Source of the DNA: Oscillospiraceae bacterium | GTDB taxonomy: Bacteria > Bacillota > Clostridia > UMGS1840 > HGM11507 | DNA: 64,000 nucleotides | NCBI GenBank assembly: GCA_015068665.1 | Contig: SVKB01000011.1 | Coordinates: forward strand, 4,858 to 68,857 | Direction: 5' to 3' | Program-made: the position numbers and the translations under genes | Notes under the pieces: model-generated | Database searches by the model: none | What the model saw: the letters and a program-made list of their open reading frames with translations, nothing else | Told to the model about the DNA's origin: nothing | Shown here: positions 4,977 to 27,316 of the stretch, in pieces | How the letters are laid out: each line of letters opens with the position of its first letter | How positions within the stretch are numbered: the stretch's first letter is position 1

Positions 4977-5050
4977 GCGGGTGTAGTTCAATGGTAGAAT
5001 CTCAGCCTTCCAAGCTGATTGCGTGGGTTCGATTCCCATCACCCGCTCCA
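4977..5050 (+). tRNA. tRNA-Gly (anticodon UCC), CCA encoded
   Basis: Hand-folded cloverleaf: acceptor GCGGGTG/CACCCGC, anticodon loop CTTCCAA, T-loop TTCGATT. Confidence 0.9.
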
Positions 5051-5054
5051 ATGT

Positions 5055-5131
<77 letters not shown>

Positions 5132-5138
5132 CTTATAT

Positions 5139-5216
5139 GGTGGGTATAGCTCAGCTGGTTAGAGCACCAGATTGTGGTCCTGGGGGTCGTCGGTTCGAAA
5201 CCGACTACCCACCCCA
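5139..5216 (+). tRNA. tRNA-His (anticodon GUG) with encoded G-1, CCA encoded
   Basis: An extra 5-prime G lies opposite discriminator C. Acceptor GTGGGTA/TACCCAC, anticodon loop TTGTGGT, T-loop TTCGAAA. Confidence 0.85.
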
Positions 5217-5245
5217 AATAAAACTCACCGAAAATATGATGTCGT

Positions 5246-5321
5246 TGGGATGTAGCCAAGTGGTAAGGCACAGGACTTTGACTCCTGCATTTCGCTGGTT
5301 CGAGCCCAGCCATCCCAGCCA
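5246..5321 (+). tRNA. tRNA-Gln (anticodon UUG), CCA encoded
   Basis: Acceptor TGGGATG/CATCCCA, anticodon stem CAGGA/TCCTG with loop CTTTGAC, T-loop TTCGAGC. Confidence 0.9.
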
Positions 5322-5340
5322 TTTTTTTTAAACTTAATAT

Positions 5341-5416
5341 GGGCCATTAGCTCAGTCGGCAGAGCACTTGACTTTTAATCAAGGTGTCCGCGGTTCGAAT
5401 CCGCGATGGCTCACCA
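5341..5416 (+). tRNA. tRNA-Lys (anticodon UUU), CCA encoded
   Basis: Acceptor GGGCCAT/ATGGCTC, anticodon stem CTTGA/TCAAG with loop CTTTTAA, T-loop TTCGAAT. Confidence 0.9.
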
Positions 5417-5419
5417 GAA

Positions 5420-5448
5420 AAAAGCACTTCGTAAGAAGTGCTTTTTTC
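5420..5448 (+). terminator. Intrinsic terminator of the tRNA operon
   Basis: AGCACTTC-GTAA-GAAGTGCT followed by TTTTT. Confidence 0.75.
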
Positions 5449-5745
5449 AATGAAATAAATCCTTTCAGGATTTGTGAAATACCCTTCGGGCGTGAAATAT
5501 TGCTTCGCAATATGAAATACGCCTTCGGCGTGTGATAAAGGATTTATTTTATTTCACAGAAAACTTTAGTTTTCTATTTCACAATTTACGAAGTAAATTA
5601 TTTCATATCAACGAAGTTGATATTTCATTAAATATTGACAATTCCACCTGTATGAAATATTGCTTCGCAATATGAAAAGGCACTAAACAAAAATTGTTTA
5701 GTGCCCGTAAGCCCGCAGGCGTATAAATAGATACGTCAAGGGTTT
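5449..5745. repeat. TGAAAT/ATTTCA dyad bead array plus R-like hairpin
   Basis: The word TGAAAT occurs at 5451, 5475, 5493 and 5513 (degenerate TGATAA at 5533), each followed by a different small hairpin (AAATCC..GGATTT, CCCTTCGGG, ATTGCTTCGCAAT, ACGCCTTCGGCGT). ATTTCA then occurs at 5551, 5576, 5600 and 5623 with other hairpins. The 25-nt TGAAATATTGCTTCGCAATATGAAA is duplicated at 5653. Confidence 0.8.
5674..5705 (-). terminator. Probable intrinsic terminator of typA
   Basis: 12-bp perfect stem GGCACTAAACAA/TTGTTTAGTGCC (5679-5705), followed on the minus strand by TTTTC. Confidence 0.55.
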
Positions 5746-5767: not shown

Positions 5768-7591
5768 TTACGCTTTTTGTGCTTTATTTCTTGCCTTTGC
5801 TCTTAAATCGCTGTTTAAGATTTTCTTTCTTAATCTTATATTCTCGGGTGTGATTTCCACCAGCTCGTCATCAGCTATAAATTCAAGGCACTGCTCTAAG
5901 CTTAAAACATCGTGAGGAGTGAGTCTTAAGGCATCGTCCGAGCCGGAGGCACGGGTATTTGTAAGCTGTTTTTTCTTGCAGACATTAAGCACAATATCCT
6001 CAGCCTTGGCATTTTCGCCAACAACCATTCCCTCATAAACCTTAACACCGGGGCCGATAAAGAGTCTGCCTCTGCCCTGGGCATTGAATAAGCCGTAGGT
6101 GATGCTTTCCCCGTCCTCCCAGGCAATGATTGAGCCTCTTGTTCTTCCGGGGATATCCCCTTTATGCTCTTCATAGCCTATAAGAATGGAGTTCATAATA
6201 CCGTTACCCTTGGTGTCGGTTAAAAATTCATTACGGTAGCCGATAAGACCACGGGAAGGAATTTTAAATTCAATTCTTGTGTAGCCGTTTGGATTGGCTG
6301 CCATATTAATCATTTCACCCTTACGGGAGCCAAGCTTTTCAATAACGCTTCCCACATATTCCTCGGGAACATCAACAATAAGGTGCTCAACAGGCTCACA
6401 TAAAACGCCCTTAAGCTCCTTCATAATGATAACCGGCTTGGAAACCTGAAATTCAAAGCCTTCTCTTCTCATAGTTTCAATTAAAATAGAAAGATGAAGC
6501 TCGCCACGCCCCGAAACCTTAAAGGAATCGGCACTGTCAGTCTCCTCAACCCTTAAGGAAACATTGGTTTCTGTTTCCCTGAACAGTCGGTCTCTTAAAT
6601 GACGGGAGGTAACGAAGGTTCCCTCTCTTCCCGCGAAGGGACTGTTATTTACAATAAAGTTCATGGAAATTGTAGGCTCGTCAACCTCAATTACCGGTAA
6701 CGGGTCAATATTTGAGGTGGTACAAAGGGTTTCACCAATGTTGAAATCGCCAAGACCTGCTATACAAATGATTTCACCTGCACTAACCGTTTCGGTTTCC
6801 ACTTTTTTAAGACCGCTGTAAGTGTAGATTCTGCCCGTTTTGGCAGTTTTAACCGAGCCGTCCTTTTTGCATATAGCAACCTGCTCGTTAACCGATACAG
6901 TACCTCTTCTTACCTTGCCGACTGCAATTTTACCCACATATTCATCATAGTCAATATTCGATACAAGCATCTGGAAGGATTCGTTATCCTTGCCCGAAGG
7001 AGCAGGAACATAATCCACGATGGTATCAAAAAGAGGCTGAAGATTTTCCGTTCTTTCGTTAAAATCAAAGGTTGCATAGCCCTCACGGGAGGAGGCATAA
7101 ATAATGGGAAAGTCAATCTGCTCATCGCTTGCCTCAAGGTCAATGAACAAATCAATTACCTCATCAACAACATCATTGGGTCTTGCATCCTTCTTATCAA
7201 TTTTATTTACAACCACAATAGGCTTTAAATCAAGCTCAAGAGCCTTTTTAAGAACAAAACGGGTCTGGGGCATAGCGCCTTCAAAGGCGTCAACCAGAAG
7301 AACAACTCCTTCAACCATACCGAGAACACGCTCAACCTCACCGCCGAAATCCGCATGGCCCGGTGTATCAACAATATTGATTTTAATATCCTTGTACATA
7401 ACCGAGGTGTTTTTGGAAAGAATGGTTATGCCTCTTTCACGCTCTAAATCGTTAGAGTCCATAACCCTGTCCTCAACCTGCTCGTTTGCTCTGAAGGTAC
7501 CGCTTTGCTTAAGCATCTCGTCAACCATAGTGGTTTTACCGTGGTCAACGTGAGCAATTATGGCTATATTTCTTATCTTTTTATCACTCAT
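5768..7591 (-). CDS. typA: Translational GTPase TypA/BipA
   Basis: 607 aa. IRNIAIIAHVDHGKTT G1 motif, DTPGHADF, NKID. Length and C-terminal domain typical of BipA. Confidence 0.95.
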   Translation of the reverse strand: MSDKKIRNIAIIAHVDHGKTTMVDEMLKQSGTFRANEQVEDRVMDSNDLERERGITILSKNTSVMYKDIKINIVDTPGHADFGGEVERVLGMVEGVVLLVDAFEGAMPQTRFVLKKALELDLKPIVVVNKIDKKDARPNDVVDEVIDLFIDLEASDEQIDFPIIYASSREGYATFDFNERTENLQPLFDTIVDYVPAPSGKDNESFQMLVSNIDYDEYVGKIAVGKVRRGTVSVNEQVAICKKDGSVKTAKTGRIYTYSGLKKVETETVSAGEIICIAGLGDFNIGETLCTTSNIDPLPVIEVDEPTISMNFIVNNSPFAGREGTFVTSRHLRDRLFRETETNVSLRVEETDSADSFKVSGRGELHLSILIETMRREGFEFQVSKPVIIMKELKGVLCEPVEHLIVDVPEEYVGSVIEKLGSRKGEMINMAANPNGYTRIEFKIPSRGLIGYRNEFLTDTKGNGIMNSILIGYEEHKGDIPGRTRGSIIAWEDGESITYGLFNAQGRGRLFIGPGVKVYEGMVVGENAKAEDIVLNVCKKKQLTNTRASGSDDALRLTPHDVLSLEQCLEFIADDELVEITPENIRLRKKILNSDLRAKARNKAQKA

Positions 7592-11398: not shown

Positions 11399-11872
11399 AA
11401 CCAGAAGTCAGGTGCGAAGGAAGGCAAGCATGACATATAAATGCAGAATTCAGAGTGCAGAATGCAAAATGATATGCCGCAGGCGGCATAGTGAATTGCA
11501 CCTTACGGTGCGTGAATTGTTATCTATTCGATAACATGAATTGATTTTTACAAATCATGAATTGTTGACTTATGTCAACATTAAGGATAGGACGGATATG
11601 CCATTCGGCATCCGTCCTTTTCTCGTTCCGCAGGAACATATCGAGTGCGAAGCACATATCGAGCAATTTTAATTGCATATCGAGTTTTGCCTTGGCAAAA
11701 CATATCGAAAATCCGAAGGATTTATATCTTATATCTCATCCCTCCTTTTCTTGTTCCGAAGGAACATATCGAGTGCGAAGCACATATCGAGCAATTTTAA
11801 TTGCATATCGAGTTTTGCTTTAGCAAAACATATCGAAAATCCGAAGGATTTATATCTTATATCTCATCCGCC
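11399..11872 (+). repeat. C composite repeat (AGGAA/TGCAGAAT words, TGAATTG bead array, P hairpin, tandem pair of CATATCGAG bead arrays)
   Basis: Starts at the tetR stop codon. TGAATTG occurs 4 times (11492-11570), separated by hairpins CACCTTACGGTG, TTATCTATTCGATAA, ATTTTTACAAAT and TTGACTTATGTCAA. P hairpin at 11589-11618 is followed by TTTTCTCG. The same composite recurs at 39831, 42364, 52326(-) and 62644(-). Confidence 0.85.
11618..11872 (+). repeat. Two tandem CATATCGAG bead arrays (period 128 nt)
   Basis: Each copy is hairpin TTCCNNNGGAA, CATATCGAG, TGCGAAGCA, CATATCGAG, CAATTTTAATTG, CATATCGAG, TTTTGCYTTRGCAAAA, CATATCGAA, AATCCGAAGGATT, then the tail ATATCTTATATCTCATCC. The first CATATCGAG is at 11637 in copy 1 and 11765 in copy 2. 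Confidence 0.85.
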
Positions 11873-12160
11873 AGCTATCGCTGACACCTGTCTCGTTGCG
11901 ACTCAGTCACGGCTCGGCTCTGACAATTCACAGGATTGTCATTCACTACCTCGCTGACGCTTCGCTACCTCATTAAGAAGGCTGTGGCGTCGGTTCTTTT
12001 TTAATACTGTAGGGCGTGGCGACTCGACACGCCGATATAAAATTACAAATTAAACTGTGCGAAGCACAATATCACTTTCAAATTCCCTGCTTGTGACAGT
12101 ATAAGACAAAACTACCCGAAGAAGAGAAAACAAACCTCTTTTTCGGGTAGTAATTTTTAT
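11873..12160. repeat. Mixed hairpin modules (partial V module, GGCGTG..CACGCC hairpin, 15-bp stem hairpin 12103-12150)
   Basis: CCAGCTATCGCTG and AGAAGGCTGTGGCG are shared with 27130-27195 in inverse orientation. CTACCCGAAGAAGAG/CTCTTTTTCGGGTAG is a long stem followed by a T-rich run. Confidence 0.6.
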
Positions 12161-12163
12161 ATA

Positions 12164-12316
12164 GTGATATTCTTTGCTGCGCAAAGAGTGATATGATTGC
12201 CGACGGCATTCGTGATATTAAAACCTACGGTTTTAGTGATATTTTATTCGCCTTTTAAAACTCGCTAAGCGAATAACACCCGGTGTTAGCCGAATATCAC
12301 TGCGTAGCAATATCAC
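12164..12316. repeat. GTGATAT/ATATCAC dyad bead array
   Basis: GTGATAT at 12164, 12188, 12212 and 12236, each followed by a different hairpin. Then ATAACAC at 12273 and ATATCAC at 12294 and 12310. Confidence 0.8.
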
Positions 12317-12384
12317 TCGCCGCAAGGCGAATAAAACTGCCCAAGTGTCCTTAGGAACACTTGGGCAAAGGCAGACACTTTTTT

Positions 12385-12780
12385 TTACTGTTTTTTAAGA
12401 AGGTCTCTGATTTCTGTAAGAAGCTTGATATCTTCGGGGATTTCAGGCTCTTTAACCTCTTCTTTAACCTCTTCCTTTTCCGGCTCTCTTTTAAGCTTTG
12501 CGATAAACTTGATGGTAAGGAACAGAACAAAGGCTGTGATTATAAAGTTTAAAACTGCCTGGATAAGAAGCCCGTAATTGATGGAGGCTTCACCGATTTT
12601 GTAGCAAAGTGCAGAAAAATCAATTCCGTTCATTAAAAGACCTATAAAAGGCATAAAGATATCCTTTACAATGGAATTGGTAACTGCGCTGAAGGCGGTA
12701 CCAATCATAACACCAATGGCAAGATCAATCATATTGCCCTTTACTGCAAATTCCTTAAATTCATTAAAAAACTTTTTCAT
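12385..12780 (-). CDS. mscL: Large-conductance mechanosensitive channel MscL
   Basis: 131 aa. FKEFAVKGNMIDLAIGVMIGTAFSAVTNSIVKDIFMP is the canonical MscL N-terminus. Confidence 0.95.
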   Translation of the reverse strand: MKKFFNEFKEFAVKGNMIDLAIGVMIGTAFSAVTNSIVKDIFMPFIGLLMNGIDFSALCYKIGEASINYGLLIQAVLNFIITAFVLFLTIKFIAKLKREPEKEEVKEEVKEPEIPEDIKLLTEIRDLLKKQ

Positions 12781-15640: not shown

Positions 15641-15647
15641 ATAAAAA

Positions 15648-15673
15648 GGGGCTGTAAATTTATTTACAGCCCC
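15648..15673 (-). terminator. Terminator hairpin GGGGCTGTAAAT-TT-ATTTACAGCCCC at the 3-prime end of S1
   Basis: 12-bp stem followed on the minus strand by TTTTTAT. The same hairpin occurs at 20147, 25006 and 53475. Confidence 0.7.
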
Positions 15674-15925
15674 TAAAACAATTCAGAGGGGATAGGAAAA
15701 AATCTTCAGAATGGATAAACTTAGCCAAAATCTTTGATTTTGGGTCACCCGAAGGCGTATTAGATACGTCGAGTGGCTAAGTTTATTCATAACCAAAAAC
15801 TTAAATTTTAAAGATTTTTCTAAAATCTTTACCTCTTTAATGGATAACTTGATAAGTTTCTCTATCAAAATCGTTGATACATCTTGTTTTTGGTGGTCTG
15901 GAGTTTTTTTACATTCCCGTTTTTA
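15674..15925 (-). repeat. S element copy 1 (body), 3-prime UTR of the 1291-aa gene
   Basis: Near-identical to 25032-25282 and inverse to 19870-20146. Contains nested hairpins (outer GGATAAACTTAGCC/GGCTAAGTTTATTC, AAAATCTTTGATTTT, CGTATTAGATACG, AGATTTTTCTAAAATCT, ACCAAAAAC..GTTTTTGGT). Confidence 0.85.
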
Positions 15926-15928
15926 ATA

Positions 15929-18900
15929 TTATTTTCCGATAAGAGCAAGCTCCTTAATATTCAGCCAGTAGTTAACAGAGTTACCCTTACCTACAATCTT
16001 TAAGTATCTTCCGGTTGCGTCAACCTTGAAGGTCTCAAAGTCTGTGGTTGCGCCTGAGGATTTTACATCCTTTGAAACTAAAGTCATATTATCCTTATCA
16101 TCACCCACATAAAGGTCAAAGGTATACACTCTCTTATCTCCTTGATGGAACATAAGATAGAGTTCTGATATATTCTTTTTGCTTCCAAGGTCTATTATTC
16201 CGTATGCCCCATCAGGCTTTGATTCGTCATAGGCAACACCCCAGCTTGTAGAAACTGTATTATCCACGGTGTTATCAATAATTGAGCCTGCGCCGTCATC
16301 CCCTGACTGAATAAGGTCGTAAATATCCAGTTCACCCGAAAGACCGTGAGGAGCAGGGAATCTTAAGCCTACTGCTCTTATGGTTACAATCTTTCTTACA
16401 TCATTCCAGCCAACCTCACAGCCGAAGGATTCAGAAATAAATCTTACCGGAACAACGAAACGACCGTCCTTAATCATTGCAGGAACATCTAAGGTAACGG
16501 GAGCACCGTTTACATAAGCGGTGGTGTTATTCTTGGTTATCTTAACCTCGGTTTCATCCTTTTTCGAGGTTGCGGTTTCAGTTGCCGCATCCCACATAAC
16601 CTCAGCACCGATTGCTTCGAAAATTGCACGCATCGGAACTAATGTTCTTCCGTTTTCGATAAAGGGATCAACATCGGATTCAAGCTGAAGATTATTAACG
16701 AAAACAGTTACCTTTGGTTCAGCTGTTGCCAAAAGCTTCTTTTCATATTCATCGTAGGTCAGTCTCGGGTCGTTAATAAGGAGAGTTGTTTTGGAAGAAG
16801 GATAGATACTCTGTAAGTATTCGGGATTACCGTTTTCCTTACCTACAGTAATGAATCTGTCCGCATTCTTAACACCCTCAACGCCGCCTATTGTCTGTGT
16901 TGCATAGATTTTATGAACGCCCTCATTAAGCAGTATTGTATATTCAAATTCATTGGTTTCGGGCTTAAGTGTTGCATTGTATGCCACATCGTCAACATAA
17001 ATTGTAACAGCAGTTGCACCCAGCTGATAAAGACCTGAAATTTTAACCTCTTTCACATCGGTTTTCTTATCACTCTTCGGATATACAATAACAGGAGCAT
17101 TAGGTCTCGCATTCTTTATGGAGCCGGTTATTCTTTCAGCAAGCTGTGCCTTATATAAGGAACGCGGCTCAACGGGAGTAAATTCAGCTTCCTTGTACGA
17201 ATCACCTACAAAAGGAGTTCCCTCCTTGGTTACAAAATGAGAATCCTTTGCATTATAGAATTCGGTTGTACGGTATATCTTTTTATAAGAGTTAACGTTT
17301 GACGTCTTCATATTAACTGAAGCTGCATCCTCATAAATACCCCATGCACCAACTAAAAAGTTCTGATAAGTATCAGGAACATCGTGAGCAACAATTGTAG
17401 AAGCAAGTGAGTTCCATACAAGTGAAGATGCCGCTGACCAGCCCTGGGATTTTGCAGTACCGTAAATACCTCTGTTTGCAAGAGCAATAAAGCCCTTTGA
17501 ACCGTTATTTATATGGAAAAGATTATCGTATAATACACCGGTTGACCAGGTTCCGTGAGTTTCGGATGCGGTATTTGAAGAGTCAACAACATTATCAACA
17601 TAAGCAATAGGGCCTGTAACACTTAAGCTTGTTTCAAAGTCGTGACGCCCGTCATAGGAATAGTTACCTGTGTATAAAACCTGCTCTGCGGAGGTTGATG
17701 CCGCAAAGGAATATCTTCTTGAACCTGCAACTGTGGAAACCGGATCTAAGCTTGAACAGCCCACAACCGAAATCTGCTTTGCATTTGCAGCAGATGACAC
17801 CAGTGACATATAGAAATGCTTTGCAGAAACATTTCTTACAAATATGTTTTTGGCATTGCTTATGGAAATAGCAGTTGTAGCGTGCTGTTCGTCACTAGGA
17901 TCGCCGTTATAGTAGGATACTATTCTTAAGTTATCAAGACCGGCGTTCTTAATCTTGCCTGAATCGTCAGTTTTATAAATATAGCTTTGTATATACTTCT
18001 TATCTGCGGGCAGGAACAGAGAATAATTAAGAGTAATTTCCGTACCGTTTATTGCGGTGATTATTCTCTCGCTCTTAGAGTCGAAATCTCCGCCTTTCCA
18101 GGAGGTATCGTCATCATAAACATTTAAAATCTTATCCATACCGATTGCCTTTGAAAGCTCAATGGTAGTCGGATTATAAACGGTAATATGGTCGCCAACT
18201 TTAAAGTTTTTGATATCCTCAGAGGACAGATTGATGGTTTTTGTACCTGCCTTGATATAATCATCGGTTATATTCGCACGCTCACCCTTTATAACAGGTG
18301 CCGAGCCCGTAATTCTTACAGGAATGTACTGAACCGGATCCTTTGCATAAAGAATTGTTCCGGTGGGGCCCTGACCTTCACCAAGAAGAACAATACCGCT
18401 CTTCAGACGGATACCCGATTTATTGATATTATAAGTACCTGCCTTAAGCTTTATAACCTTCATGCTGTCGTCAGGGGACTCATTATATACCTTGTCAATT
18501 GCCGACTGAAGCATACTTGTATCGTCAGCGGCACCTGTTGGAGAAAGCTCCATTGCAACAGGAAGCTTTGTAACATCGGGAAGCTCACATTCACCCATGT
18601 AGAAGCCTGCATAGGAAAAATCGCCGATTGTGTCGCCCTGCTCATTATAGGTATTATAAACAAGCTTATCGCCTACAGGAGCAACAAGTGTTGCAGGAAC
18701 AGGCTGAACCTGTTTCGGAGCAATATACGGATGCTCTACCTTTGGCGCAATATATATACCCTTTACGAATTTGAAATTATCAACATACCCGGTCTGAAGG
18801 GATGCCTTAACGGTATTAAGATATATTGATGCATACACCGCACCTGCAGGAGCAGTCTGGGAATTTGTTACGGTTGTCCAGGTTTTGTGTTCACCTTTGG

Positions 18901-19804
18901 TGGTCGAAACATTTGTCAGCTGCTTTTTATCTGCATCAAAGAACTTGAAGAAAACAGGAACAGAATTTTCAATGGCATAGATATCCACAACAGCTGTGTA
19001 TTTATTGCCGGGAGTAACCGGAATGAAAGGAGATGCAATGCCGCCTGCACCGGTATCACTTTTATCTTCAATGTATAAGCTGGACTTACCGTCCTTTGCA
19101 ACATCGGAGGAAATATTGACAACTACATTTCCCTGTTTTTTCCAGCCTTCGGGAAACTCTGTCCCCTCAAAGGATTCGGAAAGAATAACTTCACCGTCCT
19201 TATAATTATCGGGAACCACCTCTACCTTTGGAGCTTCCGGAATAGGAGGAGTCTTGACAGAAGAGGGGATATCCGCTTTAACATCACCGGTAAACACCTT
19301 AACATTGTCATAATAACCCACATGCTTGGTTTTTATATTTGTGCATAAAAGAACCTTTATGTGGTGTGTGTTTTCGGGTGCCACCTTGGTTAATTTAATT
19401 GTTTCCCACTTTTTTGTAACCTTAACAGCAGTCTGTACTGTTTCTAAGGTTTTGCCGTCAGCATCAAAAAATCTGAAATAAATCGGCATACTTCCCAGGG
19501 TTGAAAAAACATCACAGGTAAGTGTGTAGGTTTCGCCGGGAACAGCAGGAATTTCTTTTGATTTAAGACCCATTGAAAGAGTTTCGTCAGTATCATTTAC
19601 AAAATAGGATTTTGAACCGTGAGAATAGCCTTCATCGGAAACCTTATCGGTTTTCGATGCATCCTTTGACCAGTAATCCCATTTTTCAATTCCGTTTTCA
19701 AAGGAATCCTCGAAAATGGGAGCATCTGCAGCATAGCTTAAATTAAAAGCAGTCATAGAAAGAATCATGCTGAGTGCGATAATAAGGCAAAATATTTTTT
19801 TCAT
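15929..19804 (-). CDS. Giant secreted glycan-active protein: 2x CBM4/9-like modules, pectate-lyase-fold (beta-helix) domain, Ig-like region, copper-amine-oxidase-N-like domain, C-terminal F5/8 type C (discoidin) domain
   Basis: 1291 aa. Signal peptide MKKIFCLIIALSMILSMTAFNLSYA. Two paralogous roughly 150-aa modules (FEDSFENG..YYDNVKVF and SESFEG..YVDNFKFV). LQSAIDKVY...VIKLKAGTYNI is typical of the Pectate_lyase_3 fold. LVPMRAIFEAIGAEVMWD is a CuAO-N-like motif. Confidence 0.75.
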   Translation of the reverse strand: MKKIFCLIIALSMILSMTAFNLSYAADAPIFEDSFENGIEKWDYWSKDASKTDKVSDEGYSHGSKSYFVNDTDETLSMGLKSKEIPAVPGETYTLTCDVFSTLGSMPIYFRFFDADGKTLETVQTAVKVTKKWETIKLTKVAPENTHHIKVLLCTNIKTKHVGYYDNVKVFTGDVKADIPSSVKTPPIPEAPKVEVVPDNYKDGEVILSESFEGTEFPEGWKKQGNVVVNISSDVAKDGKSSLYIEDKSDTGAGGIASPFIPVTPGNKYTAVVDIYAIENSVPVFFKFFDADKKQLTNVSTTKGEHKTWTTVTNSQTAPAGAVYASIYLNTVKASLQTGYVDNFKFVKGIYIAPKVEHPYIAPKQVQPVPATLVAPVGDKLVYNTYNEQGDTIGDFSYAGFYMGECELPDVTKLPVAMELSPTGAADDTSMLQSAIDKVYNESPDDSMKVIKLKAGTYNINKSGIRLKSGIVLLGEGQGPTGTILYAKDPVQYIPVRITGSAPVIKGERANITDDYIKAGTKTINLSSEDIKNFKVGDHITVYNPTTIELSKAIGMDKILNVYDDDTSWKGGDFDSKSERIITAINGTEITLNYSLFLPADKKYIQSYIYKTDDSGKIKNAGLDNLRIVSYYNGDPSDEQHATTAISISNAKNIFVRNVSAKHFYMSLVSSAANAKQISVVGCSSLDPVSTVAGSRRYSFAASTSAEQVLYTGNYSYDGRHDFETSLSVTGPIAYVDNVVDSSNTASETHGTWSTGVLYDNLFHINNGSKGFIALANRGIYGTAKSQGWSAASSLVWNSLASTIVAHDVPDTYQNFLVGAWGIYEDAASVNMKTSNVNSYKKIYRTTEFYNAKDSHFVTKEGTPFVGDSYKEAEFTPVEPRSLYKAQLAERITGSIKNARPNAPVIVYPKSDKKTDVKEVKISGLYQLGATAVTIYVDDVAYNATLKPETNEFEYTILLNEGVHKIYATQTIGGVEGVKNADRFITVGKENGNPEYLQSIYPSSKTTLLINDPRLTYDEYEKKLLATAEPKVTVFVNNLQLESDVDPFIENGRTLVPMRAIFEAIGAEVMWDAATETATSKKDETEVKITKNNTTAYVNGAPVTLDVPAMIKDGRFVVPVRFISESFGCEVGWNDVRKIVTIRAVGLRFPAPHGLSGELDIYDLIQSGDDGAGSIIDNTVDNTVSTSWGVAYDESKPDGAYGIIDLGSKKNISELYLMFHQGDKRVYTFDLYVGDDKDNMTLVSKDVKSSGATTDFETFKVDATGRYLKIVGKGNSVNYWLNIKELALIGK

Positions 19805-19869: not shown

Positions 19870-20146
19870 AAAAATGGGGATGTAAAAAAACTCCAGACCA
19901 CCAAAAACAAGATTTATCAACGATTTTGATAGAGAAACTTATCAAATTAGCCGTCGAAGAGCTATCCGACGGCTAACTATTAAAAAGGTAAAGATTTTAG
20001 AAAAATCTTTAAAATTTAAGTTTTTGGTTATGAATAAACTTAGCCGCTCGACGTATCTAATACGCCTTCGGGTGACCCAAAATCAAAGATTTTGGCTAAG
20101 TTTATCCATTCTGAAGATTTTTTCCTATCCCCTCTGAATTGTTTTA
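19870..20146 (+). repeat. S element copy 2 (body), inverted relative to copies 1 and 3
   Basis: Reverse complement of the S1/S3 body. Carries an additional 22-nt TA-flanked palindrome at 19951-19972. Confidence 0.85.
19951..19972. mobile_element. Minimal TA-flanked palindromic insertion (fused MITE ends)
   Basis: TA-GCCGTCGAAGAGCTATCCGACGGC-TA. It is absent from the equivalent position of S1 and S3 (which have a single TTA there). Its sequence equals the outer part of the 52536-52809 MITE terminal repeats. Confidence 0.5.
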
Positions 20147-20182
20147 GGGGCTGTAAATAAATTTACAGCCCCATTTTTTATA
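20147..20182 (+). terminator. Terminator hairpin of S2 (GGGGCTGTAAAT-AA-ATTTACAGCCCC + ATTTTTTAT)
   Basis: The hairpin plus T-tract reads on the plus strand, convergent with the 1560-aa gene whose stop is at 20186. Confidence 0.6.
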
Positions 20183-20185: not shown

Positions 20186-23100
20186 CTATATTTCGGGAGT
20201 AAAATTAATTATATTTTCTCCGTAAAGTGTTATATTTTCTCCGTCGAAACCTTCATATTCCGCAAATGGCAGTGCATAGCAGGTTACCCCGGGACGGATT
20301 TTCGAGCCAAAAAATCTTATGCCGTACTGACCTTCGGGACCGATTGCCTCGCCGTACGCCTTTACGGTATTTTCATTATTCTCAAACTCACTCTTTGATA
20401 TATTTTCAAAAGAAAGCATAACTCCGTATCTTATACGGGTATAACCGCCGTCTTCTCCTGCTCTTGCAAAGACTATACCTACAGGGGCAGTAATTTCCTT
20501 ACCCTCAAAGGTGAAGGTATCGGTCTGTGAAAATACCTTGTCAAAGCCTTTAAACAAATTCTCCGTATTAAACTCCTCCGCTTCTCCCGAGAAGGACATT
20601 TCATATATTGTAAGGGTACAGCCTGCGCCTAAATTTGCACCCCAGGCGGTTGTAGCGGTAGATGCTGCGTTTGTTCCGTTCCTCTTTATAACCTTTATTT
20701 CTATATACTTTGCCCTGACCGAATCAAGAGGAATTGAAACAAATTCTCCGTTGTTTGCCGCCACCTTCGGACGGATAGTGCCAAGATCAGTCCAGTCCTT
20801 ATTGTTTTCAGACACTCTTACATTAAAATCAACCCACTTGTTGGTGTAGCCATAGTTAAGATTTACTGCATCGAGAGTATAAATCTTATCAAGAGTTACA
20901 GACCAATACTGATTACTGTTATAGGTTGCATCGAGACCGTATGTTGTAACATTACCCGAGCTTGCATAATCAATATAAGAGCCGCTTGCCGCTGTTAATA
21001 TGCCGTCCGAGAACAGGTCCTTGTCAAGAACGGTGGTTTTATATTCCGAGGAAGTTTTATAGTTTGTGTATTTTGTAACCGAAATTTCCGAAACTGTTGC
21101 TTTTTTAGCCATAAGTCCATAGGTTACCTTGCCGTCAGTTTTTATCATTTCATAAAATACACCCATGGAATCCTTCAGCTGATATTTTCCTGATGGCGCC
21201 TCTGAGCTTTCGGGCAAGGTAAGAAGCGAATAATAATCGCCCTCAGTTTTTCCGTAAACAGCAGTATCATTATCACCAAGGCTTCCTATAAAGTCAGCCT
21301 CGCTGTTACCCTTAAATTCACAGTCGGTAAAGCTTGAATTAACTATCGAATAATCGGAGGCAAGGGTCCAGTTTGCAAGCACCAGATCCTCACGGGTCGG
21401 TCTGTTTGTAACCATATCGAAGGTACAGTTATTAAAGTTAAGCTTAAAGGTTGCATACTCGGTGGTATGATTGGAGGCAACTCTGCCTATAAGAGAAACG
21501 GAGGTTGCTCCCTCGGAAAATCCGAAATCAACATTGTTAAAATTAAAAGTTAGGGTTTTAGGGCTTCCCTGAGTATAGCTTCCTGCCTTTGCAATGTATA
21601 AAAATCCGTGAATTTTCGACAAAAGCTTACCGTTTTTAACCTCTATAACACCGCTTGTGGGCACAACACTTCCGGAGGAATCATTGGAATTTCCCGTTGC
21701 AGTATTGCAAAGACTTTCCAGTGCCCCCAGTGTTTTACCGTTTAAATCAAGAGTAATCTTGGTTTTAACACTGCTTGTTCCTGATGGGTAACCGGTATCT
21801 GCCCAGTCTCTTCTTAAATATACCACCGCTTCTTCAGCCGGTGCTGCAAGTGACGATTTTGTGAGATTTATAGCAGCATTCATAGCCGTTTTATATGTTC
21901 CGAAGCCTTGCGAGAACTGATAACTGCCTCCCGACGCCTTACTGAATAAAGCAAAGGGATATACCTCTTCATCGGAATATTCCGCAGGAATTTCACCGTA
22001 GGGGGTTAAAATCCTGTTGGTTTCCTTTAAGCTGTATTCATAGGTAAGCTTGTTATCCGTGTAATTACCTAAGATAAGATATTTTCCGTTGTCACTTACA
22101 AATACAAGCTCCGAAGGATAGCTTTCATCCGAATTAAGCACTATTTTTGTATATTCTTCGTTTGTATTCTTACCAAAGTACACTCCGTCGCCATCGGTTA
22201 AGGAGGAGAATGCTATATCCGCTTCATTTGCACCGATAATTTTTCCGCCCTTAAAGGTAACCGATGCATCAACCTTATTATAGGTATCCGCCGCACCAAC
22301 ATTTTTATCAAGCTTTGCAATATATGCTCCGTCAGGAGCTCCCTTCATATCTATAACACAGTTATTGAAGGTCATATCATATTTAAAATCAGGTGTGGAG
22401 GAGGTTAAATTACTTGCAATGTTAAGATGCATTAAAAGAGAGGCTGCAGTACCTGCTTCTCCGTAGGAAACGGAAACATTCTCAAAATTAAATATATATC
22501 CTCTGCCTGCCACAGTATTTTCAGCCTTTACCTGTGCGTAGAACATACCGTAGGTGGTGTTACAGTAAAGCTTACCGTTTTTGATATTTATATAGGTTTC
22601 TCCGCCCTTGCCCGATGAAAAATCAGCATTACCCGTATTCATAAGGGCAGTACCGTAGGAAAGGGAAAAGCCGTTTAAATCAAAAGTAAGTGTACCGCCG
22701 ATTGCTGAGGAGGTATATAAATCACTGAAGGAAAAGTCTCTTCTTAAAAGAACAACCGCTTCATCCTCCTTTGTTGCCCCGCTTGCACCGTTTATATAGC
22801 CTGCTGCTCCCGAAAGAGCTGATTTCCAGGCACCGTAGCCTGCCACGAAGGTATAATTTTCTTCATCTTTATTTTTCTTAAATACCGCTAAGGGATAATC
22901 CCGGGAATCAGAATATGAAGACGGAATAACACCGTATGAGGTGGTAACATCTCCTTTTGCAACAAGGCTGTAAACCTTATTTGCCCCACTTACCTCCCCT
23001 GTCGGCTTAAGACCAAGAGACACCTGTGAGCCGTTATCAATACCGTTAAAGGCTTTTTCATAGTTTCCTTCGGGAAGAATTACTCTGCCGAAGGCTCCGT

Positions 23101-24868
23101 CCTCGCCCTTTATAAAGGCTACAGAGTCCCCCGATGCACTTAACTGTGCACCAAGATTAGCCTCGCTTTTTGCGATAAATTCACAGTCTTTAAAGGAAAT
23201 ATCATAATTTGATGTGCATTTATCGGTTGCAGGATTATTTGTATTTAAAACACCAAAGGAGGCATCTGCCTTTGCATTGGTGGAAAGGTCTAAAGTACAG
23301 TTATTAAGATTAATATCAAAATTTGCCTCAAGTGAGGAGGTATAATTCCTGTCGGTTACTATAAGGTCGTTATAGTTTGAAGCCTTTGAGGTGTAATCCT
23401 GATAAAAGCCTAAATTTACATTGTCAAAGTTTATCTCAAAGCTTTTGACTTTAGTATAGGTTGAGCCGGAGGTGTTGTAGATAACCCCGTAATTACCAAG
23501 CTTAAGATTACCGTTTTTGATATTTATAACACATTTTTTCTGAGCTGTCTCCCCTGTTTCCATACAATCGTCAACATCGGTTCTTATAAGGGTGATTGTA
23601 GGTGCAAGAGTATGACCGTTTAAATCAATTGTGATTTTTCCGCCCACATCGGACATATTGGAGGGATAATTATTATGTGCAAAGTCTTTTGTAACATAAA
23701 CAACTGCCTCAGCCGTTACAGGCGCCGATGCCAGCGTTAAAGCTCTTGCACGTTCCAATGCAAGCTTAATAGTATCAAAGCTTCCGTCATAAGTGTATGT
23801 TTTACCGTCGTTATTTAATTTGAATACCGCAAGAGGAAGATCCCTGTTTTCATAGGGAATAAAACCGTATTTAGTGGAAATATCGGTAACCGAATTAATT
23901 CTTTCAACCAGTTTTTCACCTATCATCTGCTGGGTTATGGAGTCGTAATGCCAGCCATCCTGCTGATAGGGCTCACGGTGAAGCCCGGTAACAGGGTCGG
24001 TAAGATCGGTGGTGGTATCTATCATAAATACATTTTTAAGATTTTTTGCATTAACCGCATCCTGTGCTGCCTGGACAACGGAAATATAAGGGGTTGCATC
24101 GGTATAGGGTGCTCCGGTATCAGGATTGATACCGGGATTTCTTAAAACCCTGCCGTAGACAAAAGGAAGCTCTGAGCAGTTTATGCCGGTAATTTCACCT
24201 ATATCCCCTCTCATATCCGATATAAGAGTTTCAAGAAGCTCCTGATAACAGCTTGCAGGAGTGGAGCTGAAGGTATCTGCCTCGCCCTGCATATACCATA
24301 TTCCCTTTATGACCGGTGTATATCCCTTATCTTTAAGCCTGTCTATACCGTATTTTATTTTTTTCATAAAGGTAAGATACAAATCCCCTACCTTGTTGGA
24401 ATCGGTTTCAATATTGTGCTTTTTTATATATGAAGGAGGGGTCCATGTGCCGTACTTTTTGGATTCGTTACTGGAGGTATTATTATAAAGAGAGGTATTT
24501 CCCCATGCCACCTTGATAATGGCATTTTCCGATTCATCCTCCATAAGAGCAGTTGCAATACCTATTTCCGCACCTGTTCTTGTAGCACTTGATTTTGTTT
24601 TTGTAAACGCAGTATCGGTCGTTCCCATATACCAGACATTTTCCGAGCCTGCCTCAAGCATGGACTTATATTCTACATATTGGGAGTCTGAAGGATAATT
24701 GGACCACATAGCATATCCCATAGCATTACTTTGCCCTGCAATAAGCCATACATTTATCCTGTTATCTCCATCTGCTTCAGCCACATTGGCAAAAGCACCG
24801 GTAAAGGAAAAACCTCCAAGACTAATAACAATGGATAAAGCTAAAAGGCAACATAAAAATTTTTTCAT
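20186..24868 (-). CDS. Giant secreted protein: N-terminal SGNH/sialate-O-acetylesterase-like domain, three ~311-aa internal repeats, C-terminal discoidin-like domain
   Basis: 1560 aa with a signal peptide. NVWLIAGQSNAMGY is the GQSN esterase motif. Repeats start at aa 334, 645 and 957 with YG(F/V/E)IP..Y...(D/E)..YP(L/F)A(V/L)F. A late region (WSVTLDKIYTLDAVNLNYG...RAKYIEIKV) is discoidin-like. Confidence 0.75.
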   Translation of the reverse strand: MKKFLCCLLALSIVISLGGFSFTGAFANVAEADGDNRINVWLIAGQSNAMGYAMWSNYPSDSQYVEYKSMLEAGSENVWYMGTTDTAFTKTKSSATRTGAEIGIATALMEDESENAIIKVAWGNTSLYNNTSSNESKKYGTWTPPSYIKKHNIETDSNKVGDLYLTFMKKIKYGIDRLKDKGYTPVIKGIWYMQGEADTFSSTPASCYQELLETLISDMRGDIGEITGINCSELPFVYGRVLRNPGINPDTGAPYTDATPYISVVQAAQDAVNAKNLKNVFMIDTTTDLTDPVTGLHREPYQQDGWHYDSITQQMIGEKLVERINSVTDISTKYGFIPYENRDLPLAVFKLNNDGKTYTYDGSFDTIKLALERARALTLASAPVTAEAVVYVTKDFAHNNYPSNMSDVGGKITIDLNGHTLAPTITLIRTDVDDCMETGETAQKKCVINIKNGNLKLGNYGVIYNTSGSTYTKVKSFEINFDNVNLGFYQDYTSKASNYNDLIVTDRNYTSSLEANFDINLNNCTLDLSTNAKADASFGVLNTNNPATDKCTSNYDISFKDCEFIAKSEANLGAQLSASGDSVAFIKGEDGAFGRVILPEGNYEKAFNGIDNGSQVSLGLKPTGEVSGANKVYSLVAKGDVTTSYGVIPSSYSDSRDYPLAVFKKNKDEENYTFVAGYGAWKSALSGAAGYINGASGATKEDEAVVLLRRDFSFSDLYTSSAIGGTLTFDLNGFSLSYGTALMNTGNADFSSGKGGETYINIKNGKLYCNTTYGMFYAQVKAENTVAGRGYIFNFENVSVSYGEAGTAASLLMHLNIASNLTSSTPDFKYDMTFNNCVIDMKGAPDGAYIAKLDKNVGAADTYNKVDASVTFKGGKIIGANEADIAFSSLTDGDGVYFGKNTNEEYTKIVLNSDESYPSELVFVSDNGKYLILGNYTDNKLTYEYSLKETNRILTPYGEIPAEYSDEEVYPFALFSKASGGSYQFSQGFGTYKTAMNAAINLTKSSLAAPAEEAVVYLRRDWADTGYPSGTSSVKTKITLDLNGKTLGALESLCNTATGNSNDSSGSVVPTSGVIEVKNGKLLSKIHGFLYIAKAGSYTQGSPKTLTFNFNNVDFGFSEGATSVSLIGRVASNHTTEYATFKLNFNNCTFDMVTNRPTREDLVLANWTLASDYSIVNSSFTDCEFKGNSEADFIGSLGDNDTAVYGKTEGDYYSLLTLPESSEAPSGKYQLKDSMGVFYEMIKTDGKVTYGLMAKKATVSEISVTKYTNYKTSSEYKTTVLDKDLFSDGILTAASGSYIDYASSGNVTTYGLDATYNSNQYWSVTLDKIYTLDAVNLNYGYTNKWVDFNVRVSENNKDWTDLGTIRPKVAANNGEFVSIPLDSVRAKYIEIKVIKRNGTNAASTATTAWGANLGAGCTLTIYEMSFSGEAEEFNTENLFKGFDKVFSQTDTFTFEGKEITAPVGIVFARAGEDGGYTRIRYGVMLSFENISKSEFENNENTVKAYGEAIGPEGQYGIRFFGSKIRPGVTCYALPFAEYEGFDGENITLYGENIINFTPEI

Positions 24869-24930: not shown

Positions 24931-25005
24931 TTGGATTATTATTCGGTGGATTGGACTATCGTGTAAATTACAAATTACCAACGTCCTTCATTTCTCAATA
25001 AAAAA

Positions 25006-25031
25006 GGGGCTGTAAATTTATTTACAGCCCC
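25006..25031 (-). terminator. Terminator hairpin at the 3-prime end of S3 (terminates rny transcript)
   Basis: GGGGCTGTAAATTTATTTACAGCCCC followed on the minus strand by TTTTTTATT. Confidence 0.7.
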
Positions 25032-25282
25032 TAAAACAATTCAGAGGGGATAGGAAAAAATCTTCAGAATGGATAAACTTAGCCAAAATCTTTGATTTTG
25101 GGTCACCCGAAGGCGTATTAGATACGTCGAGTGGCTAAGTTTATTCATAACCAAAAACTTAAATTTTAAAGATTTTTCTAAAATCTTTACCTTTTTAATG
25201 GTTAATTTGATAAGTTTCTCTATCAAAATCGTTGACACATCTTGTTTTTGGTGGTCTGGAGTTTTTTACATTCCCGTTTTTA
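25032..25282 (-). repeat. S element copy 3 (body), 3-prime UTR of rny
   Basis: Begins 1 nt after the rny stop codon. Its shadow ORF 25041..25238 differs from the S1 shadow ORF 15683..15868 at only 2 of 60 codons. Confidence 0.85.
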
Positions 25283-25283
25283 T

Positions 25284-26840
25284 TTATTTTGCATAATCTA
25301 CAGCCCTTGTTTCTCTTACGACATTAACCTTAATCTGTCCCGGATATTCAAGCTCGCTTTCGATTTTTTCTGCGATTTCTCTTGCAACCACAATCATTGT
25401 TTCATCATTGATATCATCAGGCTTAACCATAATTCTGATTTCTCTGCCTGCCTGGATTGCAAAGGATTTTTCAACGCCCTTGAAGGAGGATGAAATTTCC
25501 TCAAGCTTCTCTAAACGTTTAACATAGGTTTCAATATTTTCTCTTCTTGCGCCCGGTCTTGCAGCGGAGATTGCATCAGCTGCCTGAACGATGCATGCAA
25601 TAACTGTTTCAGGCTCTGCATCACCGTGATGGGACATAATAGAGTTTAAAACGACCTGATCCTCATGATATTTCTTGGCAATATCCGCACCAATCATAAC
25701 GTGAGAGCCTTCTATTTCGTGAGTTGAAGCCTTGCCTATATCGTGAAGTAAGCCTGCTCTTTTAGCCATAACAACGTCAACGCCTAATTCTGCGGCAATA
25801 ATTCCCGATATATGAGCAACTTCAATTGAATGCTTAAGAACATTCTGACCGTAGCTTGTTCTGTACTTAAGTCTTCCGAGAAGCTTGATAAGCTCGGGGT
25901 GAAGACCATGAACGCCAACCTCGAAGGTAGCGGATTCACCGGCTTTTTTAATGGTAGCATCAACCTCTTTCTGAGCCTTTTCAACCATTTCTTCAATTCT
26001 TGCAGGATGAATACGGCCGTCCGAGATAAGCTTTTCAAGTGCAAGACGGGCAACCTCACGTCTGACAGGATCGAAGGAGGAAAGGATAACTGCTTCGGGA
26101 GTATCGTCAATGATAACATCAACCCCTGTTGCGGTTTCTAAGGTTCTTATGTTTCTTCCTTCTCTTCCGATAATTCTTCCTTTCATTTCATCGCCGGGAA
26201 GGGATACTGTGGAAACTGTAACCTCAGCAACGTGATCGGATGCACATCTCTGAATAGCAGATGTGATAATGTTTCTTGCCTTTTCGTCAGCAACCTCTTT
26301 TGTTTCTTCTTCAATTTCCTTGATTTTAACAGCAGCGGCAACTCTGACTTTTTCTTCGATATTTTTCAGTAGGTATGTTTTTGCTTCTTCAGCGGTCAGT
26401 CCCGAAATCTTTTCAAGAAGCTCCAACTGTCTTCTCTGGATTTCAGCAACATATTCTTCTTTTTCTTCTAACTGCTTCTGCTTGTCTTTTAAATTTTCTT
26501 CTCTTGACTCAAGGTTTTCAAGCTTTTTATCAAGATTTTCTTCCTTTTGCAGAAGTCTTTTTTCCTGTTTTTGGATTTCTCCGCGACGTTCCTTGATTTC
26601 CTTATCAAGCTCTGATCTGCTCTTATGTATTTCGTCTTTAACCTCTAAAAGCTTCTCTTTTTTCATGTTTTCAACGGTTTTATAAGAGTCGTTAACAATT
26701 CTTTTTGCTTCTTCTTCAGCGCTTTTAATCTGGCTTTCCGCAATCTTTTTACGGTAGGAAATACCGAGTCTGAAAGCTATTAAGCCAACAACCAAAGCAA
26801 CACCGGCGGCGATTCCAATCATTATAAACGGATTATTCAT
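25284..26840 (-). CDS. rny: Ribonuclease Y
   Basis: N-terminal TM helix, long coiled coil, KH domain ([12 protein letters not shown]) and HD domain (HSIEVA...LLHDIGK). Start moved to ATG 26840 (MNNPF) behind GGGAGGTG; the track start at 26909 is an extension. Confidence 0.95.
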
Positions 26841-27129: not shown

Positions 27130-27316
27130 GCGGGAACCGTCGCCACAGCCTTCTCCTTGAGGAGAAGGTGTCAGCGATAGCTGACGGATGAGGTGTAAGA
27201 TATAAATCCCTACGGGATTTTCGATATGTTTTGCTAAAGCAAAACTCGATATGCAATTAAAATTGCTCGATATGTGCTTCGCACTCGATATGTTGCCTTT
27301 CGGCAACGAGAAAAAG
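27130..27316 (-). repeat. CATATCGAG bead array plus V module (inverse orientation on plus strand)
   Basis: The plus strand shows V (GCCTTCTCCTTGAGGAGAAGGTG-TCAGCGATAGCTGA-CGGATGAGGTG, 27148-27195). It is followed by AAATCCCTACGGGATT, TTCGATATG, TTTTGCTAAAGCAAAA, CTCGATATG, CAATTAAAATTG, CTCGATATG, TGCTTCGCA, CTCGATATG, TTGCCTTTCGGCAA. Confidence 0.85.

Follow-up and report, generated by a model that had tools for sequence, protein, structure and literature searches.

Gut-1 was described in 2010 without function, host or context (Weinberg et al. 2010, Genome Biol 11:R31, PMC2864571), and both that paper and Rfam class it as a small RNA (sRNA) gene. The published motif is a single array in one orientation, in which three short hairpins each follow a GUGAAAU or GUGAUAU linker. 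Here we describe Gut-1-type arrays in a window of 64,000 nt from an Oscillospiraceae bacterium (contig SVKB01000011.1 of assembly GCA_015068665.1, positions 4,858 to 68,857 of the forward strand; all positions below count from the first letter of this stretch), where they face each other in convergent pairs, called dyads in the following. A dyad consists of two convergent Gut-1-type arrays, and the unit of each array is a 7-8-nt word, (G)UGAAAU(A) or GUGAUAU, with a short and very stable hairpin, repeated three to four times per array. The convergent dyad, a closing inverted repeat named P0, the association with terminators and tRNA genes and the behaviour as a multi-copy module go beyond the description and the model of Gut-1. 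The same is true for the sister word families TGAATTG, CTCGATATG and ATGATG, which occur here and in neither of the two. In the literature searched, the dyad module, P0, the terminator/tRNA context, the host range and the sister word families were not found.

Among other known elements, the repetitive extragenic palindromic (REP) units and bacterial interspersed mosaic elements (BIMEs) of enterobacteria offer a functional parallel. These palindromic units lie at the 3' ends of genes or between convergent genes, stabilise the upstream mRNA and bind proteins. The dyads resemble them in the opposed orientation of their units, in being multi-copy and a substrate for recombination, and in clustering at 3' ends. 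However, REP units are near-identical throughout a genome and alternate in orientation from unit to unit, whereas here the hairpins differ and there is one flip per module. A REP unit is recognised by its near-identical palindrome with a 5' GTAG-type tetranucleotide; in the dyads only the linker word is constant. The relation to REP/BIME is therefore best taken as a functional analogy and not as membership. BOX elements of Streptococcus pneumoniae and Correia elements of Neisseria are modular intergenic repeats with tandem sub-units, inverted ends, stable predicted folds and possible terminators or promoters, but they share no sequence similarity with the dyads, and they are conserved from copy to copy without the rule of a constant word and variable covarying hairpins. 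CsrB and RsmZ carry GGA motifs, mainly in loops, which bind CsrA. The likeness is a short motif repeated in a hairpin scaffold; here the motif is in the linkers and most arrays have no promoter of their own. The arrays do not qualify as CRISPR (clustered regularly interspaced short palindromic repeats), since the repeats measure 6-8 nt where CRISPR repeats have 23-50 nt, the 'spacers' are palindromic and no cas domains were found in the window.

A covariance-model scan (cmscan) against Rfam, where Gut-1 (RF01706) has a gathering score of 50 bits, identified 5448-5523 on the plus strand as a full Gut-1 member with 70.2 bits. Matches below this threshold were obtained at 5546-5630 minus (41.3 bits, E = 8.7e-7), 12268-12339 minus (46.6 bits, E = 9.3e-8), 62349-62419 plus (46.5 bits), 12146-12223 plus (22.1 bits) and 5609-5683 plus (29.5 bits). 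The formal Gut-1 member is the proximal half of dyad 1 only, and the remaining halves and arrays are relatives. The Gut-1 consensus is itself a bead array, CAaUGAAAU-hairpin-GUGAAAU-hairpin-GUGAAAU-hairpin-UGAAAU. The cmscan alignments contain three consecutive hairpins with GUGAAAU or GUGAUAU linkers and stems supported by covariation; in an alignment of 17 dyads hairpin 1 has double-sided changes in five of its six pairs, and hairpins 5 and 6 covary too. GUGAAAU and GUGAUAU arrays are both present in the 2010 seed alignment, and its unaligned flanks hold a tRNA and a terminator upstream and flipped AUAUCAC words downstream. The dyad was therefore already in the 2010 data, though never described. 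An earlier note on this DNA, made from the letters alone, had taken the architecture for one without a described counterpart. For the half-array this does not hold, as it is Rfam Gut-1; for the dyad it does, as it was left without comment by the authors of the seed.

The three dyads of the window consist of the following features.

5417-5448, unstranded: intrinsic terminator hairpin behind tRNA-Lys, 14-bp stem gaaaaaagcacttcGTAAgaagtgcttttttc; outer boundary of dyad 1
5448-5531, plus: dyad 1, terminator-proximal array with four (G)TGAAAT(A) words and four hairpins; Rfam Gut-1
5451-5462, plus: P0 5' strand of dyad 1, word 1 and 5' arm of hairpin 1, TGAAATAAATCC; complement of 5540-5551 with one G.T
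5540-5551, plus: P0 3' strand of dyad 1 at the centre, GGATTTATTTTA; degenerate first flipped word and a second copy of the hairpin-1 3' arm
5546-5630, minus: dyad 1, distal array with four TGAAAT words read on the minus strand and three AU-richer hairpins; Gut-1 match of 41.3 bits
5653-5678, plus: extra partial unit TGAAAT-attgcttcgcaat-aTGAAAA, of which the TGAAAT-hairpin part repeats 5493-5513
5678-5706, minus: intrinsic terminator of typA (5768-7591, minus), upstream of the minus-sense distal array; 13-bp stem, tail TTTCATATTG
12112-12150, plus: terminator-like hairpin followed by TAATTTTTATATA, outer boundary of the dyad 2 distal half, from reading of the sequence
12164-12242, plus: dyad 2, distal array with four GTGATAT words and three hairpins between them, from a word scan; weak Gut-1 match
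12243-12253, minus: P0 3' strand of dyad 2, GGCGAATAAAA on the minus strand; perfect 11-nt complement of 12326-12336
12268-12339, minus: dyad 2, terminator-proximal array with words GTGATAT, GTGATAT and GTGTTAT and hairpin 1 TCGCC/GGCGA; Gut-1 match of 46.6 bits
12326-12336, minus: P0 5' strand of dyad 2, TTTTATTCGCC
12337-12368, minus: intrinsic terminator of mscL (12385-12780, minus), directly upstream of the proximal array; 14-bp stem, tail TTTTATTCGC
62332-62350, plus: terminator-like hairpin opening dyad 3, tgcaaagcGGAgctttgca then GTTTTATT
62349-62427, plus: dyad 3, terminator-proximal array with words GTGATAT at 62372 and 62392 and GTGGTAT at 62408; Gut-1 match of 46.5 bits; P0 5' strand at 62352-62362, hairpin 1 at 62358-62371
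62438-62448, plus: P0 3' strand of dyad 3, GGCGGATAAAA, one G.U on the plus strand
62448-62534, minus: dyad 3, distal array with ATACCAC at 62448, ATAACAC at 62473, ATATCAC at 62496 and ATAACAC at 62520, from the word list
42740-43006, minus: inverse twin of dyad 3, with the distal half on plus at 42785-42863 and the proximal half and terminator-like hairpin on minus at 42897-42979

The words of dyad 1 stand where they had been read before, with TGAAAT on the plus strand at 5451, 5475, 5493 and 5513 and ATTTCA at 5551, 5576, 5600 and 5622. The same was obtained for dyad 2 (GTGATAT at 12164, 12188, 12212 and 12236, ATAACAC at 12273, ATATCAC at 12294 and 12310). In dyad 3 all six words previously listed were recovered, and the fourth flipped word, ATACCAC, had been overlooked. 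The inverse twin is real as well; 42740-43006 is 99% complementary to 62305-62571 over 267 nt. Three TGAAAT words at 10-20-nt spacing occur four times in the window, all in dyad 1, and never in 100 dinucleotide-preserving shuffles, which excludes a chance origin of these words.

The segments between the words are hairpins, with half-array z-scores of -2.5 to -4.4 for RNA and -3.5 to -4.5 for DNA. In the proximal half of dyad 1 a perfect-stem scan finds them at 5457-5473, 5497-5513 and 5519-5531, and a fourth at about 5482-5490, with a short CCC/GGG stem, is visible only in the fold; in the distal half they lie at 5558-5575, 5583-5599 and 5605-5623. As RNA, the proximal array folds 8 kcal/mol better on the plus than on the minus strand, and the distal array better on the minus strand (-19.0 against -13.1). 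Like intrinsic terminators and the UUCG hairpins that stabilise 3' ends in phage T4, these are short GC-rich hairpins with UNCG-type loops after genes. However, the word and not a U-tract directly follows them, so they are not intrinsic terminators. Only the flanking hairpins at 5417-5448, 5678-5706 and 12337-12368 qualify as such; the first of them has an A-tract before and a T-tract after it and looks bidirectional. The hairpins had been called unrelated, which is correct within one array, where all differ, but not between genomes, where they are homologous and the dyad modules align at 70-90% identity.

A pattern scan over one genome per species gave 120 loci (L001-L120), 55 of them with hairpin-validated TGAAAT arrays. 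Nearly all carriers of validated arrays are metagenome-assembled genomes (MAGs) of gut Clostridia from humans and animals (Oscillospiraceae, Acutalibacteraceae, Ruminococcaceae, Christensenellaceae, Faecousia), in agreement with the gut microbiome as the setting of Gut-1. The few others are MAGs of Akkermansia or Akkermansiaceae (L007, L013, L084, L110), a different phylum, which carry TGAAAT arrays with GC-rich hairpins; horizontal spread, independent origin or a binning error could account for them. An orphan motif since 2010, Gut-1 is now placed in gut Clostridia, with some copies in Akkermansia MAGs. Where two arrays lie at most 150 nt apart, 27 pairs are convergent and none is divergent. 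Tandem neighbours were found four times, three of which are split single arrays, and 34 arrays are solitary, 15 of these at contig ends. The flip of the word at a centre is therefore a conserved architecture, and other genomic copies keep the dyad orientation instead of taking it at random. The scan of viral contigs returned mostly protein-coding tandem repeats, and only L263, L284 and L301 were of use.

Inverted words about a centre, at a spacing of 16-25 bp or about two helical turns, would also be expected if the words were half-sites in duplex DNA for a dimeric protein, in the manner of iterons or operators. This spacing shows no phasing, solitary arrays in one orientation are common, and every spacer is a palindrome maintained by compensatory changes, of which a protein binding the duplex would have no need. 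We regard such sites as very improbable.

Dyads are homologous, about 180 nt long and multi-copy, with 70-90% identity between genomes and unrelated flanks, also in the 17-sequence alignment. The parts always come in the same order. An intrinsic terminator is followed by CA(A/G)-word 1, by hairpin 1, which mostly reads AAATCC/GGATTT, and by three further GC-rich hairpins; then come the centre GTGAnnGGATTTATTTCATTTCAC and three AU-richer hairpins with flipped words. The proximal GC-rich array is co-oriented with the upstream gene or tRNA and the AU-richer distal array is inverted. In 13 of 29 dyads the terminator is supplied by a tRNA gene pointing into the module, and the identity of this tRNA varies (Lys, Arg, Trp, Asn, Leu, Gln, Glu). 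The terminator-then-array layout is also present in L012, L024, L040, L052, L063, L071, L076, L078, L089, L098 and L116.

P0, a covarying inverted repeat of 12-16 bp, bounds the proximal half; in it, word 1 and the 5' arm of hairpin 1 pair with the centre and the first flipped word. In dyad 1 it joins 5451-5462 to 5540-5551 and reaches 16 bp when flanking bases are counted. The claim that only the words can pair across the centre is therefore wrong, because the centre can also pair with the 5' arm of hairpin 1. P0 appears as AAATCC/GGATTT in most loci, as TCGTTCC/GGAACGA in L024 and L098, as TTGCCC/GGGCAA in L025 and as AAATCCACCC/GGGTGGATTT in L054, where a degenerate word 1, CTAAAT, is matched by ATTTAA. 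In the GTGATAT family it reads TTTTATTCGCC/GGCGAATAAAA, and the arrangement of dyad 2 recurs in L263 and two of the 2010 seed sequences. In the 17-sequence alignment 93.6% of the cells are paired and seven of 12 pairs show double-sided changes; these values were not attained in any of 500 shuffles, and in slid controls no more than 60% is paired. In an RNA from the terminator to the centre P0 dominates, with P >= 0.9 in 10 of 17 loci and 1.00 in the window. For the distal half no contiguous complement that could form a closing helix on its own strand was found, and ARAGORN returns only the five true tRNAs of the window and no tRNA-like fold for the P0-closed domain. What has been conserved in evolution is a larger and asymmetric module, which is convergent, linked to a terminator and closed by a covarying helix.

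In the window (tRNA-Lys/typA; mscL) and in L263 the dyad can be read as merely two 3' untranslated regions (UTRs) of convergent genes. About half of the other dyads are followed by a co-directional promoter or tRNA and do not fit, so that only a weakened form of this reading was kept. At the right edge of the dyad in L024, L052, L078 and L012 the last flipped word abuts the -35 box of a good sigma-70-type promoter of the downstream co-directional gene (ATTTCAC-TTGAAA-N17-TATAAT in L024), so that the AU-rich distal half occupies the position of an UP-element.

Fold preference, loops and position favour an RNA in the sense of the words, each half on its own strand. When folded as RNA, all 19 proximal halves are more stable on the strand of their own words, by 5.5 kcal/mol on average, and so are 16 of the 19 distal halves, by 4.2 kcal/mol on average. 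One loop rule, C-UNC-G or C-UNNC-G (C-UUC-G, C-UGC-G, C-UAC-G, C-UUAC-G), holds for both halves when each is read along its words, as determined on 191 distinct hairpins of TGAAAT arrays from the window and L001-L120. The array has the orientation of the nearest gene or tRNA upstream in 31 cases and the opposite one in 12 (p = 0.005). The rarity of sense promoters upstream of the arrays (2 of 62) points the same way, and L245, where an array stands between a consensus promoter and a terminator, speaks for transcription in the sense of the words. Arrays directly follow stop codons in L002, L011, L080, L175, L263, L284 and L301, and those of the window lie directly behind the terminators of tRNA-Lys, typA and mscL. 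Promoters were counted with a scanner and terminators read from the sequence.

In the explanation we prefer, each half would function as RNA of its own strand, as part of the 3' end or of the read-through of a transcript that enters from its side. The hairpins would fold locally, block 3'-exonucleases and obstruct the polymerase, and a trans-acting factor, a ribonuclease such as RNase Y or J or else an RNA-binding protein, would recognise or cleave the RNA at the conserved single-stranded words. Two head-on arrays may then form a two-sided insulator between neighbouring transcription units, with a function similar to REP/BIME, and the module would spread or be lost as a unit and serve as a substrate for recombination. 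Complementarity of the words is not required, as convergent pairs with differing words exist. Taken as a whole, we give this mechanism somewhat less than an even chance. The arrays could serve as compact terminator or insulator parts for the engineering of gut Firmicutes, and if the mechanism turns out to be that of ordinary stabiliser hairpins, the annotation of an abundant element would still be useful.

Several observations weigh against this mechanism. Each array keeps one word, yet four different words occur within one genome, and we know of no factor that binds them. The stems are 98% Watson-Crick (21 mismatches in 1145 positions, 6 G.T and 8 A.C) without an excess of G.U. Read from the opposite strand, the loops are C-GNA-G or C-GNNA-G, as the rule for DNA mini-hairpins of very high stability demands, and DNA parameters give preference to neither strand. 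Together these three points leave room for a role as single-stranded DNA. The preference for one RNA strand comes partly from the invariant words, via the U.G closing pair. Most proximal arrays lie behind a terminator, so only read-through RNA would contain them, and the distal half looks onto a co-directional promoter or gene, and not onto a convergent gene, in roughly half of the dyads (L012, L024, L040, L052, L078, L063, L116). P0, in which the few G.U pairs are on the proximal-sense strand, could be an RNA helix or equally a terminal inverted repeat at the DNA level, and its covariation is compatible with both.

A comparison of G.U with A.C mismatches as an indicator of the functional strand was uninformative (6 against 8), because the stems are almost purely Watson-Crick. 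The second base pair, by which an RNA UNCG tetraloop is told from a DNA GCGNAGC mini-hairpin, is C-G in 22 and G-C in 23 of 57 hairpins and so favours neither reading.

The distribution of the module also suits a selfish or domesticated repeat at the DNA level, similar to REP/BIME or to miniature inverted-repeat transposable elements (MITEs), in which single-stranded DNA hairpins and the word would be recognised by an HUH/Y1 or other transposase or recombinase, P0 would be the terminal inverted repeat and an effect on transcription a by-product. Copies are multiple and 70-99% identical in unrelated flanks. In L040 two near-identical copies, terminator included, lie 2.7 kb apart, one behind a tRNA and the other behind a protein gene. 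Related tRNA clusters differ in presence or absence of the module; in L063 and L116 it lies between tRNA-Arg and tRNA-His, and the same two genes are 8 nt apart in the window, where it is absent. A conspecific sequence with identical TypA (L123, ena:ERZ27248436:k141_2918653) agrees with the window across the distal half and the centre of dyad 1. Beyond the centre the proximal half, the terminator and the tRNA are different and lead to MFS, AA_kinase and Aldedh genes, which places a recombination breakpoint inside the dyad. The module thus behaves as a dispersed repeat and breaks synteny within a species. Furthermore, orphan arrays lie far from co-oriented genes (for example 11637-11836 and 12164-12242), the stems are near-perfect palindromes without G.U excess whose loops fit the DNA mini-hairpin rule, and P0, which bounds the proximal half, has the length and form of a 12-17-bp terminal inverted repeat. 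However, no transposase or REP-associated tyrosine transposase (RAYT) was found among the long open reading frames (ORFs) of the 64-kb window, and no target-site duplication was recognisable at the tRNA-Arg/tRNA-His insertion when L063 and L116 were compared with the window. The hairpins all differ within an array, unlike REP copies, and words and hairpin-forming ability are kept across families of Clostridia by compensatory changes, which is unusual for decaying MITEs. In addition, the arrays are significantly co-oriented with the upstream gene and at least one of them (in L245) has its own promoter and terminator. We therefore consider a DNA repeat of this kind unlikely.

The array in L245 (4589-4643), built from CTCGATATG words, begins about 30 nt downstream of a consensus TTGACA-N17-TATAAT promoter and leads straight into an intrinsic terminator, and from its sequence looks like a stand-alone small-RNA gene. 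It fits the idea that the arrays are decoy or sponge sRNAs for an RNA-binding protein in the manner of CsrB/RsmZ, with the words as binding sites and the dyad as two genes sharing a terminator region. The classification of Gut-1 as an sRNA gene by Rfam and the 2010 paper agrees with this idea, and identical single-stranded words between hairpins suit multivalent binding. For the other arrays this is more difficult, as a sense promoter within 150 nt upstream was recognised for only 2 of 62 TGAAAT arrays, and most arrays follow a stop codon or the T-tract of a terminator so closely that a promoter would not fit in between. At least four different words within one genome also speak against it. 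Decoy sRNAs thus appear quite unlikely to us as the general explanation, and we retain own-strand arrays at 3' ends as the preferred one.

The earlier note had predicted that the flipped words pair with each other in register, so that one RNA or single DNA strand spanning the dyad would form a ladder of helices, of 6-7 bp in the note and 6-8 bp as considered here, each with a local hairpin on either side, as in stacked four-way junctions. A strand covering the whole dyad does gain from word-word pairing, by 7-16 kcal/mol in three of the four folds of dyads 1 to 3 (-50.1 against -38.9 kcal/mol for local hairpins in dyad 1 plus, -53.9 against -38.1 in dyad 2 plus); for the minus strand of dyad 3 the gain is only about 3 kcal/mol. 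With this gain and the conserved flip, neither of the two outcomes that the note had named as contradicting the ladder, a lack of gain or random orientation, was seen. RNAalifold on the 17 dyads returns three in-register rungs, which every full-length sequence can form, most pairs use the same word on either side, and the innermost rung of dyad 3 is a matched variant, GTGGTAT with ATACCAC. A plus-strand terminator behind the whole dyad in L040 means that a single plus RNA could cover it, and the covarying hairpin 1 is compatible with the ladder.

However, at -42.0 kcal/mol the full four-rung fold of dyad 1 is only 3 kcal/mol better than local hairpins (-39.0) and falls short of the minimum free energy structure (-50.1), and the probabilities of its rungs are 0.00, 0.01, 0.03 and 0.64. 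Other loci take other registers, because all words are identical, and the rungs are invariant and so give no support by covariation. Among the GTGATAT-type words three variants are uncompensated and one is compensated: GTGATAT stands opposite ATAACAC (A.A) in dyad 3 and in one 2010 seed sequence, and GTGTTAT opposite ATATCAC (U.U) in dyad 2. No further GTGATAT dyads in which compensation of the rungs could be followed were present in the fetched genome loci. The degenerate word 1 of L054 is compensated in its P0 partner and not in its ladder partner. P0 covaries and links the outermost left word with the innermost right word, so it cannot nest with the ladder. Convergent pairs whose words cannot pair with each other also exist, TGAATTG against CTCGATATG in the window (11416-11864) and TGAAAT facing TGATGATATA or ATGATG in L002 and L011, and the distal hairpins are less stable on the strand that the ladder requires. 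From the prediction the energy gain and the in-register rungs remain; the ladder is possible on paper, but it is not a structure visibly preserved by evolution, and we judge it improbable.

A related possibility arises from hairpin 1, which covaries just as well as P0 and competes with it. Its 5' arm can thus pair with either of two partners but not with both at once, and which fold wins depends only on the extent of the strand, as word-word helices outcompete P0 in an RNA of the whole dyad. On this basis the dyad might be a bistable single-strand device. In one state P0 would close a proximal four-way-junction domain with free GUGAAAU linkers, and in the other hairpin 1 would reform and the linkers would zip with the distal AUUUCAC words, so that read-through behind the terminators of highly expressed genes such as tRNAs could be sensed or controlled. 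The second state, if true, would be a partial version of the ladder. We see only a small chance for such a device, and keep the reading in which each half acts on its own strand.

Gut-1 belongs to a broader class of hairpin arrays, in each of which the word is constant and the hairpins vary. A third family in the window has the word RTGAATTG and four hairpins, with copies 85-99% identical and a weak match to the Gut-1 model (28.9 bits). A fourth, with the word CTCGATATG, usually ends in CGAGAAAA and a terminator-like hairpin, is detected weakly by the Gut-1 model and is widespread in metagenomes. Arrays of the two families together form a composite repeat of about 316 nt, dispersed at 94-99% identity.

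11492-11564, 39930-40002, 42388-42461, plus: RTGAATTG arrays
62811-62882, ~52475-52560, minus: RTGAATTG arrays
11637-11708, 11765-11836, 40193-40264, 41464-41534, 42537-42604, minus: CTCGATATG arrays
27221-27292, 38664-38714, 38846-38916, 52341-52413, 62666-62737, plus: CTCGATATG arrays
11416-11864, unstranded: composite repeat with the TGAATTG array on plus (11492-11564), an intrinsic terminator at ~11588-11625 and two CTCGATATG arrays on minus (11637-11708, 11765-11836)
39854-40292, 42357-42604, 52313-52896, 62638-62958: other copies of the composite repeat

By PHROGs and Pfam, the window is a housekeeping region of the chromosome of a spore-forming gut Clostridia member. It encodes MreB, TypA/BipA, an IspH-S1 fusion, RNase Y, RNase J, SpoIIM, YqfD, PhoH, YbeY, a XerD-like recombinase, MscL and cell-wall proteins with Cu_amine_oxidN1 domains. 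A phage origin was rejected, as megablast against phages matched only tRNAs and the PHROGs and Pfam results are those of a bacterial chromosome. Dyad 1 is bordered on one side by a cluster of five tRNA genes (4977-5416, the last being tRNA-Lys; ARAGORN) with its terminator, and on the other by the convergent typA, whose terminator runs from 5706 to 5678. Dyad 2 lies in a gene-free stretch of 1 kb between a TetR-family gene and the convergent mscL, and the mscL terminator (12368-12337) adjoins its array.

ORFs of 92-116 amino acids at 11673-11957, 42345-42695, 42857-43135 and 5002-5322 lie wholly within hairpin arrays or tRNA genes. They are almost certainly spurious, although automatic annotation may call them. 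The arrays account for such spurious ORF calls and for assembly or recombination breakpoints in gut MAGs.

Further dispersed intergenic repeats of 57-260 nt are present at 33157-33913, 42972-43227, 51927-52364 and 62034-62318. This family contains AAAAAAGCGTAAAAT...GCAAAGCAAAATAATATAAATAG and a CACCTTCGGGTG hairpin and has neither a bead structure nor a convincing Rfam match. In addition, repeats of 200-290 nt, 95-99% identical and both direct and inverted, occur at 15643-15930, 19870-20178 and 25000-25288. They flank two giant cell-wall protein genes (15929-19804 and 20186-24868) and may be duplicated regulatory regions or substrates for recombination.

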